From NCBI GenBank assembly GCA_018674305.1, contig JABHAL010000002.1:4496-68495 (forward strand): a stretch of 64,000 bases of DNA. The letters are read 5' to 3'. Below are positions 4,291-58,189 of this stretch, piece by piece. A model generated the notes under the pieces. The model worked only from the letters and a program-made list of their open reading frames with translations, did not search any database and had not been told where the DNA came from. The position numbers and the translations under genes are program-made. How positions within the stretch are numbered: position 1 is the first letter of the stretch; each line of letters begins with the position of its first letter. This DNA is from Candidatus Falkowbacteria bacterium (GTDB lineage Bacteria; Patescibacteriota; Patescibacteriia; UBA11705; JABHMO01).

Positions 4291-5104
4291 CGTCTTGATT
4301 ATATTTCAAAATATTTACTATATTGATTTTATTGAAATCAACCATGGAGGCCAAAGCGGCCTCCTGAAACAACTCTTCTGGCTCATTAACAATACTCTTG
4401 ATCTGACCAATTACAATATTTCCCGGCACTTTTTGTTCTAAACCTGAAGTTACTATTATATCGCCCTCTTTTATCATCTCAGTCTGTGGGATTAAACGCA
4501 TTTTTATTCCCAAGCCAAACTCACCCTCTACCACCCCTATTGTTCGTGATTTATTCTGGATCCTCGCAGCTACCTTTGACAAATCATCATTAATTAACAA
4601 AACAATAGAACTATTTTTATTGACTTTGATAATTTTGCCAATCAACATATTTTGTTCTGCTAAAACAGGCTGCCCTACCTCAATTCCGACCTTACTTCCA
4701 ACATCAAGGATCAAGGCATTTTGTGAACCGTCGGCACTTTGACCAATCACTCTAGCGATTTCAAACAAATATTGATTTTTGTCTACAAACTGCATTTGTT
4801 CACGCAAAAATTGATTTTCTTCTTGTTCAGACACACATCTACTTTTTTCGTTAATCAGCATTGCTAATTGATCCTTCAAATCCTTATTCTCTTGGACCAA
4901 AGCTTGTTTAGACCTAAAATTCAAATAATTATCCCCCACCCAATAAGAGATTTGGTAAACTGATCTTAATACTGGTTTAGTAGCTGACACAGCCAAATTT
5001 TCAATTGGTCTTAGAACTTTTATGTAATGTAAAAAAAACAGCAGTAGAACAATTACCACTGAAACAATAATTAATTTTGTTGATTTTCTATTTAACATTA
5101 CCAT
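4283..5104 (-). CDS. mreC: rod shape-determining protein MreC
   Basis: N-terminal TM, a coiled coil (LVQENKDLKDQLAMLINEKS) and a C-terminal MreC beta-domain. Start probably at an internal Met, because the ORF-track start lies inside a heptamer repeat. Confidence 0.75.
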   Translation of the reverse strand: MVMLNRKSTKLIIVSVVIVLLLFFLHYIKVLRPIENLAVSATKPVLRSVYQISYWVGDNYLNFRSKQALVQENKDLKDQLAMLINEKSRCVSEQEENQFLREQMQFVDKNQYLFEIARVIGQSADGSQNALILDVGSKVGIEVGQPVLAEQNMLIGKIIKVNKNSSIVLLINDDLSKVAARIQNKSRTIGVVEGEFGLGIKMRLIPQTEMIKEGDIIVTSGLEQKVPGNIVIGQIKSIVNEPEELFQEAALASMVDFNKINIVNILKYNQDDD

Positions 5105-6266: not shown

Positions 6267-7508
6267 CTATGTCAACTTTTTAACAATTTGATTAAGTTTA
6301 ATCAATTCCATTTTTTCTTGATTTCGTTGCTTGAATTCTATGCTTTCTTGGGCCAAGGTTTTTTCACTAACCACAATTCTATATGGCATACCAAGTAAAT
6401 CGCTATCATTCAATTTCACGCCAGCTGATTCCTCTCTATCATCATATAAAACCTCAATTCCAGCCTGCTGCAACTCATCATAGAGTTTGTCACTAACAGC
6501 CTTAATTTTAGCGTCTTTTCCAAGGAAAAGCAAATGCACCTTGAATGGAGCAATAGACTCAGGCCAAATCATACCTTTGTCGTCATGGTGAACCTCAATT
6601 ACAGACCCCATAACCCTAGATGGCCCAATACCATAACAACCCATGATCACTGGTTGTTCCTTGCCATCTTTATCAGTATATTTAAAATTAAAAGCAGTAC
6701 TGTATTTGGTTTTTAATGGAAAAATATTTCCAACCTCAATGGCCTTGGCCTCTAAAATTTGACCACCACATTTAGGACATTTATCGCCAATTTTAACTTC
6801 GCAAATTTCATCATTCTGTGCAAAGTCACATTTATCGCAGTAAAAAACTGTATCTTCTCCGCTATCAGTAAAAACCTGAAACTCATGTGAGTATTTAGAA
6901 AAGTCGCCACCTGAAGCCTCCACTATTTTAGCGTTCAAACCACAACGTTTGAATACATTCAAATATGCTCCTTTGGATTTTTCATAGTATTGCCACATGT
7001 CCTCCTCATTAAGATGAAAACTGTATAAATCTTTCATGCTAAATTCTAAACCACGCAATATTCCTGATTTAGCTCTAGGTTCATTGCGGAACTTATCCTG
7101 AATTTGATAAACAGCCACAGGCAAGTCCTTATATGATTTAACAAACTTTTGTACCAATGGAGTAACCACTTCTTCGTGGGTCCAGCCTAAACCATAGTCC
7201 TTTTCACTACGACCCTTAAGCTGAAACATTACCTCAGGACCTGGACTTTCCCAACGTCCAGTTTTTTGCCAGATTTCCTTTGGTGTTAATGCCGGCATTA
7301 ATATTTCCTGACCATCAATGACCTCCATTTCTTCCCTAACAATCTTTTTCACTTTATCCAAAACCCTCAATCCCAATGGTAAATATGAATAAACTCCGGC
7401 CATTAATTTATCTACAAAACCAGCTCTAATTAATAAGCTTGCATTGGTACTGACTTCATCTTTTGGTAATTCCTTAATTGTTTTGGTGAATAGTTTTGAT
7501 TGACGCAT
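6267..7508 (-). CDS. proS: prolyl-tRNA synthetase (short form lacking the editing domain)
   Basis: N-terminal FTKTIKELPKDEVS...RAGF, class II motif 3 GCYGIGPSRVMG, and a Cys-rich zinc-binding insert CDKCDF...CPKCGG. Confidence 0.85.
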   Translation of the reverse strand: MRQSKLFTKTIKELPKDEVSTNASLLIRAGFVDKLMAGVYSYLPLGLRVLDKVKKIVREEMEVIDGQEILMPALTPKEIWQKTGRWESPGPEVMFQLKGRSEKDYGLGWTHEEVVTPLVQKFVKSYKDLPVAVYQIQDKFRNEPRAKSGILRGLEFSMKDLYSFHLNEEDMWQYYEKSKGAYLNVFKRCGLNAKIVEASGGDFSKYSHEFQVFTDSGEDTVFYCDKCDFAQNDEICEVKIGDKCPKCGGQILEAKAIEVGNIFPLKTKYSTAFNFKYTDKDGKEQPVIMGCYGIGPSRVMGSVIEVHHDDKGMIWPESIAPFKVHLLFLGKDAKIKAVSDKLYDELQQAGIEVLYDDREESAGVKLNDSDLLGMPYRIVVSEKTLAQESIEFKQRNQEKMELIKLNQIVKKLT

Positions 7509-7585
7509 AATGTTAGTAGATTCAAGTTGATAGATTCAAGTGAACAATTACCAAAATCTTTAATCTTAAATCATTAATCTGTAAT

Positions 7586-8026
7586 CTAATTGAGTTTTTT
7601 ATATGAAATGAAAAATAATTCAATAACCGTAGTGAAAGAAATTACAATCAACATCAACCACCAGGTCAAATATCTTTGACTTTGTAAAATCAAAGCCATG
7701 ATGATTATAAAAGTAAATAATATTGCTTGCCTTGAAGCTAGGCTAATACTCTTTTGCGGGACTTCATCTTTTTTTAGTAATTTAATTCTGACCCAAATAC
7801 CGAACAACGACAGCAAAGATCCCAAGGAAAAAGCTAAACTAATGTAAAATAAAAACAAACCTAATATCCCAGCTTCAAATGGATTTATAAAAATTAAAAC
7901 CAAAATCCAGGCTGCCCAACAGATAGCACAGCAAACTGATAAAATGATTGAATACCTAGTTATGGTCATATTGCCTATATCAATTTTAGCATTAATATAC
8001 TGGTCTTTCAATAGAGGTTTGTACAA
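7586..8026 (-). CDS. hypothetical polytopic membrane protein
   Basis: 146 aa with four predicted TM helices and no recognisable motif. Confidence 0.4.
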   Translation of the reverse strand: MYKPLLKDQYINAKIDIGNMTITRYSIILSVCCAICWAAWILVLIFINPFEAGILGLFLFYISLAFSLGSLLSLFGIWVRIKLLKKDEVPQKSISLASRQAILFTFIIIMALILQSQRYLTWWLMLIVISFTTVIELFFISYKKLN

Positions 8027-8318
8027 TTTTCAGCTTTTTTACTATTTGACCACCAAATTTCTTGTTGATAGCCTCAATTATTGAATTTTTCTTAAAATTT
8101 AGTTCCTGAGCAATAATTGAATTAGCAGTCTCAACTTTCAAGATCTGACTCTTCAATGAAATAACTCTAACCAGCTCGTGCCCCTTTTTTCCCCAAAATT
8201 CACGCATTAAACCATTGGCAAACTCAACAACCATACCGGACATTATTTGTTTAGCCAGTGGTTTTTTCTTAAATCTAGAAAGTAATATTTTTTGTAGTGA
8301 ATCCGCCATAAATTTCAA
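7992..8318 (-). CDS. DUF721/DciA-like small protein
   Basis: 108 aa. LKVETANSIIAQELNFKKNSIIEAINKKFG resembles the DUF721 (DciA) core. Call is weak. Confidence 0.35.
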   Translation of the reverse strand: MKFMADSLQKILLSRFKKKPLAKQIMSGMVVEFANGLMREFWGKKGHELVRVISLKSQILKVETANSIIAQELNFKKNSIIEAINKKFGGQIVKKLKIVQTSIERPVY

Positions 8319-8357
8319 TTACGTAGACTAATTTTGTCTAAATTTACTTAACGACTA

Positions 8358-8386
8358 TTGACAAAATATATAATCTATGCTATAAT
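8358..8386 (+). promoter_or_regulatory. consensus sigma70 promoter (TTGACA-17-TATAAT) for 8434..9111
   Basis: Exact TTGACA at 8358-8363, a 17-nt spacer and exact TATAAT at 8381-8386. AAGGAGG SD at 8419-8425, 8 nt before the ATG. Confidence 0.55.
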
Positions 8387-8433
8387 ACTAAGATTTGATG
8401 ATTGAAAAATAACTTTCCCTTAAGGAGGATACC

Positions 8434-9111
8434 ATGAGAAAGTTCATCAATTTGTTTGTGATTTTAGGAATAATTATGTTTGCCAGCAACGTGCAAGCAA
8501 AAGATGTGGATATGTCAAACTTTGACATGCGCGTGCGATTCAGCCGTGCAATAGAGTCCTGGGCGTTTCACAACTTCGATGTCCTGTTCGAGGCCAATGC
8601 ATTTATCACTGACTACCAGACGATGAATGCCATGTTTGGTCTGTTGTACCACGTCGATCGGAACAGTAAACTGGTTCTGATGATTGGTCAACAGTTGGGC
8701 GCAGGCGTGAGCAGCAACAATGTAGCTCTGACCGGTCGCTGGCATCAACGTGTAAGTCGGGTTGTAGGTTTCAAGTTGGAGGCGGATCTTTTCATTCCCA
8801 TCCAGGCCAACAATGCCGAGAGCCAACCCACGGTCGGCTTCAGAACCTACGAGTCACTTGACTTTATGATCGAGCGCAGGATGTTCATCTCGCTCGGACT
8901 GGAACAGGAAAAGCTGGACAACTTCCGATATCGGTTCGGACCCAGTTTCACCTGGCAGTGGCTTCGAGTTTGGGCCGGATACCTTCATCAGGAAGAATCC
9001 GGTACAAAGCAAAGTTCCACAAATCAGCCAACGCCGGTGAACGCACAACCTCGCTGTACTGACTGCGACTGCGGAGATATGTTCTTCGCCTCAGTAGCGC
9101 TAACCTTCTAA
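8434..9111 (+). CDS. secreted protein with signal peptide, putative beta-rich/beta-barrel fold, in a GC-rich islet
   Basis: N-terminal signal peptide MRKFINLFVILGIIMFASNVQA-KD. Alternating hydrophobic pattern, aromatic-rich, C-terminal Phe. GC content clearly above the flanks. Confidence 0.6.
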   Translation: MRKFINLFVILGIIMFASNVQAKDVDMSNFDMRVRFSRAIESWAFHNFDVLFEANAFITDYQTMNAMFGLLYHVDRNSKLVLMIGQQLGAGVSSNNVALTGRWHQRVSRVVGFKLEADLFIPIQANNAESQPTVGFRTYESLDFMIERRMFISLGLEQEKLDNFRYRFGPSFTWQWLRVWAGYLHQEESGTKQSSTNQPTPVNAQPRCTDCDCGDMFFASVALTF

Positions 9112-27649: not shown

Positions 27650-28294
27650 TTATTTTTTTGGCGAAATAACAACTGTAAACTCACCTTTTTCTTTTACTTG
27701 TTCTAGAATTTCTTCAGCTGTACCTCTATATATTGTTTCAAATTTTTTAGTTAATTCACGAGCAACTACAATTTGTCGATCTTCTTCAAGTTCAGTTTTC
27801 AACTTTTCTAGTGTTTTAATGATTCTGTGTGGTGATTCATAAAAACAAACTGTATATTTTGAATTTTTCATTAAGTCTAACGTCTTTTGTTGCCCCTTGC
27901 GAGGCATAAATCCTAGAAACAGGAACTTATCGGTTGGATAACCTGAAATTGATAAAGCAGAAGCTACTGCGCTTGGTCCTGGAATTGGACAAACTTCATA
28001 CCCAGCTTCAATTGCTAATTGAACTAATTTACCACCAGGATCAGAAATTCCTGGGGTTCCAGCATCGGACACATAAGCGATGTCTTCATATTCAGCAATC
28101 AGCCTTTCAATTTTTTCTTCTGATGAATGCTGATGTAAGCTGATTAGCTTTTTCTTCAATTCAAACTTTTCAACCAACTTTCTAGTTTGCCGGGTATCTT
28201 CACAAAGAATAACATCTACATTTTTCAATACTTCAATTGCACGTAATGTCATATCCTGTAAATTTCCAATTGGGGTTCCAACAATGTAAATCAT
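27650..28294 (-). CDS. rsmI: 16S rRNA (cytidine1402-2'-O)-methyltransferase RsmI (tetrapyrrole-methylase fold)
   Basis: IYIVGTPIGNLQDMTLRAIEVLKNVDVILCEDTR is the RsmI N-terminal signature. Confidence 0.8.
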   Translation of the reverse strand: MIYIVGTPIGNLQDMTLRAIEVLKNVDVILCEDTRQTRKLVEKFELKKKLISLHQHSSEEKIERLIAEYEDIAYVSDAGTPGISDPGGKLVQLAIEAGYEVCPIPGPSAVASALSISGYPTDKFLFLGFMPRKGQQKTLDLMKNSKYTVCFYESPHRIIKTLEKLKTELEEDRQIVVARELTKKFETIYRGTAEEILEQVKEKGEFTVVISPKK

Positions 28295-28346
28295 ATTAAC
28301 TAAATTATAGCAAAATTTAGCAATTTGTCCATGTATCCCACGGCAC

Positions 28347-28375
28347 TTGACAAGATTATAGATTTATGCTATAAT
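28347..28375 (+). promoter_or_regulatory. consensus sigma70 promoter (TTGACA-17-TATAAT)
   Basis: Exact hexamers at 28347-28352 and 28370-28375. Confidence 0.5.
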
Positions 28376-28380
28376 GTGGC

Positions 28381-28557
28381 TACATGTTTCATAGAAAAAA
28401 CTATTGTCGAAAAAAGGAGGTGAACCATGGGGGCATGGCGGAGAAATACCGCAGTTGGTCAAAGTTAACTCGGTGTAACGAGTCACAGGCCAATAAGCCC
28501 AACAATCTACAGAAACAACACATCGCGCCCCGATCAACGTCGGGGCGCACTATTTTT
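28381..28557 (+). ncRNA. candidate short transcript (~175 nt): leader, a 13-codon ORF with perfect SD, then an intrinsic terminator. Candidate sRNA or leader-peptide RNA.
   Basis: AAGGAGG at 28414-28420, ATG at 28427, ORF MGAWRRNTAVGQS* (28427..28468), GC-rich terminator GCGCCCCGA-tcaacg-TCGGGGCGC + ACTATTTTT at 28525..28557. GC content far above the flanks. Confidence 0.35.
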
Positions 28558-28575
28558 AAATTATCCACAATCGTA

Positions 28576-28604
28576 TTGACTCTCGTAATTTGACATGATA
28601 TTAT
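28576..28604 (+). promoter_or_regulatory. near-consensus sigma70 promoter (TTGACT-17-TATTAT, extended -10 TG)
   Basis: Hexamers at 28576-28581 and 28599-28604. No protein-coding ORF with an RBS follows. Confidence 0.45.
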
Positions 28605-28609
28605 ATAAA

Positions 28610-28895
28610 AGCCTTTTGAGGAGAAAGGCAAAGGTAAAACTGATTTTGAAAACTGAAGGAGGGAATCACGCTTAAACCTACAATTAGAGCGAGTAATTAA
28701 GGTCAAATGGCCTTACCACTACGAGTTGACGTCAACGTAACGTCCCGTAGGGAAAAAAACAAAGCACCGCGCTAGGCACACAATCTTTGGAAAGAGGAAT
28801 AGACAGCTTGTCTGTCAATCCCGATAAGGCAACCTGTCATCCACAAGATGAAAGGAAAACAAGATTGGTCCAATAAAGCCGGTGCATTTTTTTAC
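28610..28895 (+). ncRNA. candidate non-coding RNA (~280 nt, GC-rich, several local hairpins); identity unknown
   Basis: Downstream of the 28576 promoter with no credible ORF. Elevated GC. Hairpins such as GACAG-cttgt-CTGTC. Ends near an A/T-rich stretch. Confidence 0.25.
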
Positions 28896-28934
28896 AAAAA
28901 ATTAAAAGGAGACTTTTTGTTGCAAAAAGCCTCC
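28890..28934 (-). terminator. rho-independent terminator for 28951..29214
   Basis: GGAGGCTTTTTG caa CAAAAAGTCTCC stem with one mismatch, followed on the minus strand by TTTTAATTTTTTG. Confidence 0.55.
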
Positions 28935-28950
28935 CTTGATAACGTATCAT

Positions 28951-29214
28951 TCACCTAGCACATTCTTCACACTGACCACAATCACATTCGTTAACATTAA
29001 TTTCCCTGATTGGCCGAATCATTACAGTTTCTTCAATATTAACTAGCGCACCTGTTTCGACATGAACAGCACAACAAACTTCACCTGTTTCTCCATCAAT
29101 CAACTGATGACGTTCCGGAATTTTCAGAAACAAATCCTCCTGAGTGCCAGACTCATTAAGCTTAAACAACGTTGTACCATGCTCCTCCGCGTCAAGATCA
29201 GCAAAACAGATCAT
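28951..29214 (-). CDS. small Cys-rich protein (C-terminal CDCGQCEEC cluster), function unknown
   Basis: 87 aa. GGAGG SD 6 nt before the ATG. C-terminus ECDCGQCEECAR plus an internal CC pair suggest metal binding. Confidence 0.5.
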   Translation of the reverse strand: MICFADLDAEEHGTTLFKLNESGTQEDLFLKIPERHQLIDGETGEVCCAVHVETGALVNIEETVMIRPIREINVNECDCGQCEECAR

Positions 29215-29340
29215 TCAATTCCTCCGAAAAAAGGTTAACCTTGCTTTTAAAACATATCTGAGTAATACCTAATACTAACAGGTTTCTAAGAAAATGTCAA
29301 CTCTTTTAAAATCAATCAGACTTGCTATAATAAAGACACT

Positions 29341-30219
29341 ATGAAATCCAAGCGTAACAAAACTATAAGCGTCACAAAAGAGGATGAAAAAAACTTTCCA
29401 GTTTTTAAAATACACAATACCCAACCTCCAAGACCAAATTTAATCAACAAACTTTTTTATGGAGACTGCATTAAAGAGATGTCTAAATTACCAGACAGTT
29501 TTGTTGACTTAATCGTAACTGACCCACCCTACACCATACGCAAAGATTTCGGTAAAGGCACCGTCACCACGAAAGAAAAAGAATTTATAACCTGGTGCGA
29601 AAACTGGATTGAACAATGTTTTCGAATACTCAAGCCAAACGGTTCAATTTATATTTGCATAAACTGGGAAGCTTCAACTATTATTGAAGCTATCTTAAAA
29701 AACCATTTCATAATTCGCAATCGCATTACATGGAAGAGAGACAAAGGGCGCGGCGCCAAAAAGAATTGGAAAAATAACATGGAAGATATCTGGTTTGCAA
29801 CCAAGGGCGATGATTACACTTTTAATTTAGAGGCTGTTAAAGTTAAAAAAGCTGTTATCGCCCCATACGTTGACAAAAAAGGAAAACCAAAAGATTGGCA
29901 GGAAGTTGATGGCAAGAAATTTCGTATGACTCACCCATCCAACATTTGGACTGATTTAACGGTCCCCTTTTGGTCAATGCCGGAAAACACTGAACATCCT
30001 ACCCAAAAACCGGAAAAACTTATTGAAAGAATTATACTAGCAAGTTCGAACAAAGGGGAATTAATTTTTGATCCATTCATGGGCTCTGGAACAACCGCTG
30101 TAGTTGCTAAACGACTAGAACGAAACTACTTAGGCTTTGAAATTGAAAAACGGTTTTATATTTTGGCTCAGAAACGACTCAAAGCATTGAATCAACTCCG
30201 CGAAAGCATAGGCATTTAG
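29341..30219 (+). CDS. DNA methyltransferase, beta-class N6A/N4C amino-MTase (DPPY), apparently orphan
   Basis: Motif IV IVTDPPY precedes motif I FDPFMGSGTT, the beta-group order. No restriction endonuclease candidate adjacent. Confidence 0.8.
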   Translation: MKSKRNKTISVTKEDEKNFPVFKIHNTQPPRPNLINKLFYGDCIKEMSKLPDSFVDLIVTDPPYTIRKDFGKGTVTTKEKEFITWCENWIEQCFRILKPNGSIYICINWEASTIIEAILKNHFIIRNRITWKRDKGRGAKKNWKNNMEDIWFATKGDDYTFNLEAVKVKKAVIAPYVDKKGKPKDWQEVDGKKFRMTHPSNIWTDLTVPFWSMPENTEHPTQKPEKLIERIILASSNKGELIFDPFMGSGTTAVVAKRLERNYLGFEIEKRFYILAQKRLKALNQLRESIGI

Positions 30220-57520: not shown

Positions 57521-58123
57521 CTAGGCGAATTTACGAATAATGGCTCTAACTACTCCACGAATTGCAACATCTTTGCAATAAATAGGTTTCATGGTAGCAT
57601 TTGCTGGTTGTAGTCGAATCCGATTAGTTTCTCGATAAAATTTCTTTAGAGTAGCAAAAGCATTATTCAAAAGAGCTACTACCACGTCTCCATTTCTTGG
57701 AGAATGATTTCTTTCAACAACTACGAAATCACCGTCCAAAATTCCTTCTTCAATCATCGACTCCCCGCTGACTTTTAAGACAAATGCATTCTCATCTGGA
57801 ACTAAATCTGCTGGGACTGCCATAGTTTCATGATCTTCGACAGCTTCAATTGGTTGACCAGCGGTAATTAGTCCAACTAGTGGTAATTCAATTGACTTAC
57901 TGAGTTGCATAACTTTTGATGTCAATCCAATCCCCCTTGGTGTATCAGAACTTAAATCTAGATATCCCTTACTTTTCAATGTCTGTAAATGTTGATGTAC
58001 AGTCGCTGGAGAGGATAACCCCATACCTTCGGCAATCTCTCTATAACTTGGTGAATAATCATAGTCTTGCATGAAACTTTTCACGAAGTTAAGTATTTCT
58101 GATTGTCTCTTAGTTAAAGTCAT
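57521..58123 (-). CDS. lexA: LexA repressor
   Basis: N-terminal winged HTH (SYREIAEGMGLSSPATVHQHL), Ala-Gly cleavage region, S24 peptidase Ser (SGESM) ... Lys dyad. Confidence 0.85.
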   Translation of the reverse strand: MTLTKRQSEILNFVKSFMQDYDYSPSYREIAEGMGLSSPATVHQHLQTLKSKGYLDLSSDTPRGIGLTSKVMQLSKSIELPLVGLITAGQPIEAVEDHETMAVPADLVPDENAFVLKVSGESMIEEGILDGDFVVVERNHSPRNGDVVVALLNNAFATLKKFYRETNRIRLQPANATMKPIYCKDVAIRGVVRAIIRKFA

Positions 58124-58189
58124 ACGAGTTGATGTTTAATTTATAATTTCCAATTTTTCAATTTTCATTAAATTTGTAATTTTCAATTT

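Follow-up and report, generated by a model that had tools for sequence, protein, structure and literature searches.

A candidate lineage-restricted structured RNA and a short leader-like companion transcript next to rsmI in Falkowbacteria-like bacteria

What fills a gap of 656 nucleotides (nt) that hosts no protein gene, and yet carries two promoters and two terminators correctly ordered along one strand? The gap separates rsmI from a cysteine-rich open reading frame (ORF) of 87 amino acids (aa) in a Candidatus Falkowbacteria bacterium (assembly GCA_018674305.1, contig JABHAL010000002.1). It was analyzed within a stretch of 64,000 nt (contig positions 4,496 to 68,495, forward strand), called here the window, whose coordinates are used throughout. 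An inspection of the letters alone, hereafter the sequence-only reading, had singled out the region as a candidate small RNA (sRNA) locus. All the elements that it had listed are where it had placed them: the flanking genes, a perfect and a good promoter, a Shine-Dalgarno (SD) sequence followed by a 13-codon ORF, a GC-rich intrinsic terminator, and a terminal region of about 280 nt, devoid of ORFs except for frames not exceeding about 22 codons on the + strand, which includes an SD-like motif. The elements make up two + strand units, each running from a promoter to a terminator, called Unit 1 and Unit 2 (Table 1). The evidence tilts slightly towards the conclusion that Unit 2 represents a new structured RNA with a regulatory role, restricted to the lineage and transcribed from a box-controlled promoter, and Unit 1 a reduced, probably translated leader-like RNA, found in the slot taken by mini-ORFs in relatives. 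The interval would be a lineage-specific island of small transcripts, in which two independent sigma-70-type units serve no protein gene.

Syntenic loci of ten related species, denoted by L numbers, were obtained by exact-protein look-ups. RsmI of the window is identical to a protein assigned by NCBI to Candidatus Falkowbacteria, and RsmI proteins 60–82% identical to it come from Falkowbacteria, Kuenenbacteria, Parcubacteria or Patescibacteria. Scans with RsmI of genome contigs (as an alignment) and of metagenome contigs yielded among the matches listed only relatives at ≤58% identity, many of which do not belong to the Candidate Phyla Radiation (CPR). A gene-free gap of 0.58–2.5 kb, located between rsmI and a co-oriented gene encoding a N6_N4 DNA methyltransferase (MTase), was found in ten species; the arrangement is missing in one relative, L170. 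In the window too, the + strand gene downstream of the island encodes a N6_N4 DNA methylase according to Pfam. Each gap is a string of 2–5 small co-oriented transcription units, and its GC content varies from 0.39 to 0.51 in the nine gaps measured, a set from which L178 and L179 stand apart. Promoters of the TGCTATAAT type, AAAAGGAGG SD sequences and terminators are common to the gaps, which share nearly no primary sequence. Matches found by blastn and nhmmer correspond only to promoters, mini-ORFs and terminal parts of Unit 2; six-frame blastp comparisons between gaps revealed no protein-level similarity, and no common stop-free frames or ORF remnants.

Against this background Unit 2 stands out. 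By profile searches and direct reading of the sequences, it was identified in six species, including that of the window, and in the other five RsmI is 64–82% identical to the window protein. Promoters equivalent to P2, the promoter of Unit 2, were recognized by reading in all five relatives, with spacers of 16–17 nt. The common architecture of the RNA includes five helices, H1 to H5. A hairpin (H1) at the predicted transcription start, present at this position in five species with unrelated sequences, is followed by about 25 unpaired nt. A GGAGG motif comes next, followed after 0–3 nt by AUG in four species and by AUC in two. The frames that extend downstream vary in length and sequence among the six species, and selection has therefore been exerted on the RNA rather than on a peptide. 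Hairpin H2 and helix H3, which surrounds a variable insert, are followed in all six species by an A/C-rich linker of 12–16 nt. The 3' domain, which contains H5, is closed by H4. In place of a compact terminator hairpin, Unit 2 has the long-range 9-bp stem H4, located immediately 5' of a run of U residues that is found in all six species.

Compensatory changes, with no broken pairs, were seen in two sequence-anchored helices, H3 and H4. In an unfitted MAFFT alignment of the 3' part of the six sequences, H4 is paired in every one of its 54 cells. Three of its pairs differ at both positions: in L089 a C-G pair is replaced by G-C, and in L179 an A-U pair and a U-A pair are each replaced by G-C. 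Of 500 shuffled alignments none was as good, and pairing dropped to 22–48% in slid controls. H3, CUACG/CGUAG in the window, is replaced in relatives by CUGCG/CGCAG and CU(A)GGU/ACCAG, corresponding to three compensatory double changes and zero broken pairs. H1, H2 and H5 are helices that occur at fixed positions with unrelated sequences among species. A count made in Python on the curated alignment gave canonical pairing in 170 of 170 cells over the 36 pairs of the whole model; the alignments of H1, H2 and H5 had been fitted by hand to the structure, and H4 alone was counted on the unfitted alignment. MAFFT misaligned the 5' half and L179 when run on full-length Unit 2. Unit 2 folds better than shuffled sequences (z = -2.9), and the antisense strand folds about equally well, so that the choice of the strand rests on promoters, U-tracts and G-U pairs. 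Four G-U pairs, found in H1 and H2, would be A-C mismatches in the opposite orientation, which favours the + strand. Unit 2 has its own promoter and a terminator (H4 and the U-tract), no conserved ORF, and compensatory substitutions (three in H4, three in H3), as a stand-alone sRNA gene would. Scanning viral contigs for the H4 arms gave 120 matches, which all fell in GC-rich DNA of phages (median GC 0.62) and lacked a U-tail, and which were for these reasons regarded as due to chance.

The promoter of Unit 2 is marked by a further constant feature. The nonamer TTATCCACA, a perfect match to the DnaA-box consensus, is invariant in the six species, and lies 6–8 nt 5' of the -35 hexamer, just past the preceding terminator. 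Out of 21 perfect TTATCCACA boxes detected in 1.04 Mb of loci plus window, 12 are found in this arrangement with a -35 hexamer. A one-mismatch box is found at 28837, within Unit 2. The nonamer may be a site for a transcription factor, most simply DnaA. Outside the Unit 2 loci, the association of box and -35 was encountered in the 1.04 Mb only once, in the window at 58710 (- strand). There, the array TTATCCACA-N8-TTGACG-17-TATAAT (58710-58675) is followed by GTTCGGTTTCTGTTCGG / CGAACAGAAACCGAAC repeats, then by a gene of the 23S_rRNA_IVP family (58190-58588) and by lexA (57521-58123). The lexA operon site and Unit 2 may be under a common regulator.

Unit 1 differs from Unit 2 in its conservation. 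Its promoter, P1, is a perfect one: two exact TTGACA-17-TATAAT sequences are present in the 64 kb, where shuffled sequences predict 0.03, a chance level about 60-fold lower. Over P1 and the first transcribed bases, identity with the L083 sequence is 86%. The predicted transcript folds with a minimum free energy of -53.9 kcal/mol (z = -3.95 versus shuffled sequences). Its SD, AAAAGGAGGTGA, is shared with L085 and L178, whose Unit 1 opens with it, and L083 features a different SD. The 13-codon ORF occupies the slot taken in relatives by a four-codon ORF, of which it keeps only the Trp codon. Codons 2–4 are complementary to the 5' arm of the terminator T1, and folding of the nascent RNA predicted this pairing with a probability of 0.94–0.99 before the 3' arm of T1 is made; the helix is short (5 G-C and one G-U). 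The segment is possibly a translation-sensitive antiterminator: as the codons can pair with the terminator arm, a ribosome engaged on the ORF could favour termination.

The mini-ORFs of the relatives are better defined. In five to six of them, transcripts from the same site carry 2–4 ORFs of 7–10 codons, each preceded by an SD, which conform to the motif x[YFH][TP][ST]G[FY]x-stop (Table 1). The motif always terminates exactly one codon before the stop. The first ORF of L083, L085 and L178 reads (A/G)UG-CAC-UGG-CCN-UAR, four codons that spell MHWP-stop. Since synonymous positions are free to vary, and TCN as well as AGY codons are used for serine, selection is exerted at the level of the peptide or of decoding. 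SDs and mini-ORFs are conserved between L085 and L178, and the spacers are not. The stops in a set of 13 mini-ORFs are UAG (8) or UAA (5), and C is the next base in 9 of the 13; one of the two L178 ORFs ends with UGA. A scan of 1.03 Mb on both strands with a strict form of the motif yielded 20 matches, all located on the RNA strand of gaps upstream of rsmI (L085/86, L089, L171-176). No match was found in the 64-kb window, and the window ORF MGAWRRNTAVGQS lacks the motif. The RNA that carries mini-ORFs in L171 measures about 1.3 kb. The fixed distance of the motif from the stop, and the C-terminal Pro-stop of MHWP, are reminiscent of termination-arrest leader peptides.

Table 1. Features of the rsmI-proximal island in the window, and of Unit 2 and mini-ORFs in relatives
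Feature	Position	Strand	Description
rsmI	27650-28294	-	Pfam TP_methylase match
Promoter-like site of rsmI	28304..28331	-	divergent; TGGACA-16-TATAAT, 11/12; left edge of the island
Promoter P1	28347..28375	+	TTGACA-17-TATAAT, 12/12; TG extension (TGCTATAAT)
Unit 1, predicted transcript	28382..28557	+	~175 nt; 5' untranslated region, perfect SD, 13-codon ORF, hairpins, A/C-rich stretch, terminator
SD of Unit 1	28414-28423	+	AAGGAGGTGA; 10-nt perfect anti-SD complement
13-codon ORF	28427-28468	+	MGAWRRNTAVGQS; ATG 28427, stop TAA 28466-28468
ORF codons 2-4	28430..28436	+	GGGGCAU; predicted partner T1 5' arm 28525-31 (nascent-RNA fold)
Terminator T1	28525..28557	+	GCGCCCCGA/TCGGGGCGC, 10-pair stem (8 G-C) at 28525-28548; T-run 28553-28557
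DnaA-box-like nonamer	28561..28569	+	TTATCCACA, perfect consensus, between T1 and P2; 6 nt 5' of the P2 -35
Promoter P2	28576..28604	+	TTGACT-17-TATTAT, 10/12; TG-extended
Unit 2 RNA	about 28611..28893	+	~283-285 nt, conserved structured RNA (nhmmer, curated alignment, covariation)
H1	28611..28629	+	5'-terminal hairpin GCCUUU/AAAGGC at predicted transcription start
SD-like motif	28657..28663	+	AGGAGGG, unpaired
H2	28699..28714	+	hairpin AAGGUC/GGCCUU
H3	28719..28750	+	helix CUACG/CGUAG around variable insert
Linker	28751..28763	+	GGAAAAAAACAAA; A/C-rich, single-stranded
3' domain, closed by H4	28764..28885	+	GCACCG-c-GCU (28764-73) with AGCCGGUGC (28877-85)
H5	28781-87 with 28861-67	+	inside the 3' domain
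U-tract	28887..28893	+	directly 3' of H4; predicted Unit 2 3' end; T-run in 6/6 species
Terminator of the 87-aa gene	28905..28937	-	intrinsic; gene convergent; outside Unit 2, right edge of the island
87-aa Cys-rich ORF	28951-29214	-	no Pfam match
Unit 2, window	28610-28893		
Unit 2, L083	2136-1837		
Unit 2, L085	2189-1894		
Unit 2, L178	2425-2094		
Unit 2, L089	2219-1978		
Unit 2, L179	2699-2450		
Mini-ORFs, L085	2568/2357	-	MRYTSGFP, MYTSGFD
Mini-ORFs, L089	2758/2625/2539/2337	-	MFTSGFL, MPYTSGFL, MHTSGFV, MHTTGFT
Mini-ORFs, L171	1925/1458	-	MRRFTSGFL, MRRYPSGFC
Mini-ORF, L173	2313	-	MRVRHPSGFV
Mini-ORFs, L175	2508/2101	-	MGRYPTGFK, MRKRFPTGYV, MKRRYAYGFQ
Mini-ORFs, L178	about 2633 and 2536	-	RYTAGFL, MYTTGFA

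Units of this sort might be known RNAs in disguise. Strong promoters, GC-rich structured units and lengths compatible with 6S RNA, at about 180 nt, or with a small RNase P RNA, at about 280 nt, would suit a divergent housekeeping RNA (RNase P RNA, signal recognition particle (SRP) RNA, 6S RNA or transfer-messenger RNA (tmRNA)) missed by Rfam in the CPR. Rfam 15, used at gathering thresholds, gave 0 matches in the whole window and in four relatives. At E≤10, 751 bases of the window gave chance matches only, to a human long non-coding RNA and to terminator-like sRNAs, and at E≤1 the loci of eight relatives matched no known family; over all the Rfam searches, of the window and of the loci of 12 relatives, RMST_3, RefA9, psm_mec, SurA and snoR20 were rejected as chance matches. 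The covariance models of the housekeeping families (RF00010/11, RF00023, RF00169/RF01854, RF00013) matched neither set at these thresholds, and ARAGORN detected no tRNA or tmRNA in the window or in the eight loci. The sequence-only reading had matched none of these four RNAs by eye. Likenesses to T-boxes and to helix P4 of RNase P RNA were also seen by eye, and no model backs them; H4 and its flanks (AAAG..CCG..GCU / ACAG-CCGG) bear a loose resemblance to P4. In addition, in Unit 2 the 5' and 3' ends do not pair with each other, the H4 strands are only 70–110 nt apart, and neither a tRNA-like domain nor the motif of SRP domain IV is present. Unit 2 was not found in close syntenic relatives, and this makes an essential RNA implausible; a housekeeping role is in all highly improbable. 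The view that transcripts are origin-proximal, and the box part of a region related to a replication origin, is still harder to sustain and deserves hardly any credence. It may appeal to the perfect box at 28561 and to the imperfect one at 28837, but the perfect box is single, clusters of boxes and AT-rich unwinding elements are missing, and no dnaA or dnaN was seen nearby. Cumulative GC skew is monotonic over the whole window, which, along with the lack of a box cluster, argues against oriC. Fast-evolving non-functional DNA, for instance pseudogenes or the remains of a mobile element, carrying promoter- and terminator-like sequences by chance, would account for the very low primary similarity between species, for the variable number and length of the units, and for local duplications of promoter/terminator modules in relatives. 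It would not explain why H3 and H4 are maintained by compensatory changes, why the box does not vary and keeps a fixed spacing to the -35, why mini-ORFs of relatives are selected at the peptide level (Ser by TCN and AGY), or why GC is raised in an AT-rich genome in which the gaps share no ORF remnants; this explanation is very unlikely. Guide arrays of the CRISPR or TIGR type were also rejected, as no tandem repeat-spacer families occur. A search for repeats in the gaps revealed no tandem arrays, only two-copy duplications of promoters or terminators in relatives.

Two further explanations accept that the units are functional. Unit 2, and possibly Unit 1, could be a cis-acting leader (riboswitch or attenuator) of the DNA methyltransferase gene, with H4 and the U-tract as a regulated terminator. 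In L083, L085 and L179 the MTase gene is co-oriented and directly follows the U-tract of Unit 2, and the units are arranged in tandem and run toward it. In the window, L089 and L178, however, Unit 2 and the MTase gene are separated by a small convergent gene equipped with a terminator of its own. The MTase gene of the window, and those of L083, L085 and L179, have their own extended -10, 6–9 nt ahead of the start codon. No alternative antiterminator for H4 was identified. Neither riboswitch nor T-box aptamers of Rfam matched the locus. Control of the MTase gene in cis is unlikely. Slightly more room, though still little, is left for the alternative that the units are tiny mRNAs, in which the 13-aa peptide and a 5–15-aa peptide of Unit 2 are functional and RNA structure only stabilizes the message. 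The SD of Unit 1 is perfect, GGAGG is followed by AUG in four of the six Unit 2 sequences, and the islands of relatives clearly harbour mini-ORFs whose peptides are conserved. On the other side, Unit 2 frames vary, AUC replaces AUG in two species, the spacing of SD and start is only 0–3 nt, the 13-aa peptide of the window matches no relative, and conservation in Unit 2 concerns helices and the promoter box rather than codons. Each of these rival explanations was judged less likely than a structured RNA with a leader-like companion.

Several points weigh against this preferred interpretation as well. The five more distant syntenic loci (L087, L171, L173, L175 and L177) yielded no Unit 2, and the family is for this reason narrow; its alignment consists of six sequences only. 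Full pairing of H1, H2 and H5 is partly obtained by construction because of the manual fitting, and folding z-scores are moderate and similar for the two strands. GGAGG followed by AUG or AUC leaves room for translation of Unit 2. Even in L083, the closest relative, conservation extends neither to the body of Unit 1 nor to the 13-codon peptide; the pairing with the T1 arm predicted in the window (5 G-C and one G-U) is far weaker than T1. Binding of DnaA, finally, is deduced from the consensus sequence of the box alone.

Among the outcomes that the sequence-only reading had named as fatal to its proposal were a match to a known Rfam element, and comparative data showing lack of conservation and covariation. 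Neither was observed: no family matches the window, and Unit 2 exhibits compensatory changes among the six species. For these two reasons the notion of a candidate sRNA locus holds for Unit 2. Support from compensatory changes does not extend to Unit 1, whose body is unconserved in relatives. The suggestion of a leader peptide or attenuator, relevant to Unit 1, is supported in part. The ORF falls in the mini-ORF slot, and its codons can pair with the T1 arm; the peptide and the body are not conserved, and no structural gene follows. GC content was described as far above the background, and is raised to a lesser degree: 0.40–0.455 in the island, versus 0.30–0.42 in adjacent 200-nt windows, and about 0.35–0.37 at the 4-kb scale.

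In the scheme that we favour, Unit 2 would be a member of an undescribed family of structured RNAs, ~240–330 nt in length. Its transcription would be controlled by a factor recognising TTATCCACA, most likely DnaA. The 5'-terminal hairpin H1 would likely be protective, the H4 closing stem and the U-tract would act as the terminator, and the product would be a stable regulatory RNA, acting in trans or through binding to a protein or to the ribosome. Unit 1 would be a short diverged form of the upstream mini-ORF RNA of relatives, probably translated via its perfect SD. A ribosome located on the first codons of the ORF may affect T1, and hence read-through over the box and P2 into Unit 2. High expression of both units may be expected from the quality of their promoters. 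A bolder version, which we regard as rather unlikely, views the island between rsmI and the MTase gene as a new CPR translation-coupled module. Arrays of mini-ORFs of 4–10 codons (MHWP-stop; x[YF][TP]SGFx-stop) would serve as termination-arrest sensors of amino-acid or translation status, gating T1 into a DnaA-box-controlled Unit 2, possibly under a control shared with lexA; the window would host a reduced version, made by one diverged ORF and an intact Unit 2. If true, the module would tie translational capacity to the control of replication and DNA damage in host-dependent organisms.

Different known systems recall parts of the island. Dual-function sRNAs, such as RNAIII/delta-haemolysin of Staphylococcus aureus, SgrS/SgrT of Escherichia coli and SR1/SR1P of Bacillus subtilis, are structured stand-alone units with a very short SD-driven ORF, as are Unit 1 and, above all, the mini-ORF RNAs of relatives. 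In contrast to them, the units described here have no credible Rfam match, and the ORFs measure 4–13 codons and are present in 2–4 copies per transcript in relatives. The trpL, pheL and tnaC attenuators share with Unit 1 a strong SD and a very short ORF 5' of an intrinsic terminator, and in the window codons of the ORF can pair with a terminator arm. They differ because no regulated structural gene lies downstream: T1 is followed by the TTATCCACA box, by P2 and Unit 2, an RNA gene with its own promoter, and then by a convergent gene; runs of regulatory codons are also missing, and no conserved alternation of 1:2/2:3/3:4 pairings emerged. Termination-arrest peptides of the TnaC type end in Pro-stop, and so does MHWP of relatives. 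DnaA regulates its own gene, nrdAB, and sda in B. subtilis; as at such promoters, a consensus 9-mer adjoins the core promoter of Unit 2, whose product, unlike theirs, would be a non-coding RNA. We know of no structured sRNA controlled by a DnaA box, though no systematic search was made. GC-rich structured non-coding RNAs of the OLE, raiA and ROOL class have been discovered by inspecting long GC-rich intergenic regions of AT-rich genomes (PMC8723152, PMC11109978). Unit 2 resembles them in having covarying helices at a GC-enriched intergenic site of an AT-rich genome. It matches no Rfam family, is smaller, and is confined so far to one Falkowbacteria-like clade and one syntenic site.

Literature searches retrieved no description of Unit 2 or of the mini-ORF elements. 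Genes for sRNAs delimited by a promoter and a terminator, as leader peptides, are known kinds of elements; the Unit 2 family, its coupling to a promoter of the DnaA-box type, and the tandem peptide-conserved mini-ORFs carried by long GC-rich RNAs at the same site in relatives are new here. Non-coding RNAs of the CPR/Patescibacteria seem to have been little studied, and the window is blank in Rfam. Unit 2 provides a concrete, testable family, defined by its coordinates in the six species, by a model with five helices and by a promoter box of diagnostic value. The repeated mini-ORFs of relatives represent a class of elements overlooked by gene callers as well as by RNA scans. Should the box prove a genuine DnaA site, Unit 2 would be a structured RNA placed under replication-initiator control. 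The second copy of the box-promoter array, upstream of the lexA operon, hints at a shared regulon.

Further observations concern the gaps and their surroundings. A "unit 0" of ~80–100 nt, running from promoter to terminator (for example AAUUGGCUGCGGGGCC...GCCGGGCGGCUAUUUUU), is found on the - strand between rsmI and Unit 1 or 2 in L085 (about 2850-2775), L178 (about 2890-2815) and L179 (about 2880-2785), and is missing from the window. Promoter/terminator modules 75–83% identical are duplicated within the island in L083 (2294-2371 and 2746-2823), L173 (1475-1533 and 1691-1749) and L087 (2654-2698 and 2822-2866), which suggests that units arise via local duplication. The cysteine-rich ORF at 28951-29214 (-) belongs to a family of acidic proteins of 74–87 aa (MxCFxDL...F.K.P...TG.V..A), which has no Pfam match and includes products encoded in L089 (about 1704-1928, +) and L178 (1778-2032, +). 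Genes of the family are convergent with Unit 2 in three of the six species, and are missing at that place in L083, L085 and L179. An extended -10 (TGCTATAAT or a variant) is found 6–9 nt 5' of the ATG of the N6_N4 MTase gene, in the window at 29322-29343, and on the - strand in L083 (about 1830-1808), L085 (about 1845-1823) and L179 (about 2432-2417). Because of this short distance, the MTase mRNA is probably leaderless or nearly so.

Elsewhere in the window, GC content rises to 0.42–0.445 at 58000-64000, against about 0.35 in the remaining parts; the segment includes an ORF of 971 aa (59470-62385, -), and no rRNA or other Rfam match was found in it. In the gap at 7508-8434, a strong TG-extended promoter-like site, TTGAAA-N15-TGCTAAAAT, is located on the - strand at 8011-7983 with no obvious ORF directly 3' of it, and may mark another small transcript.

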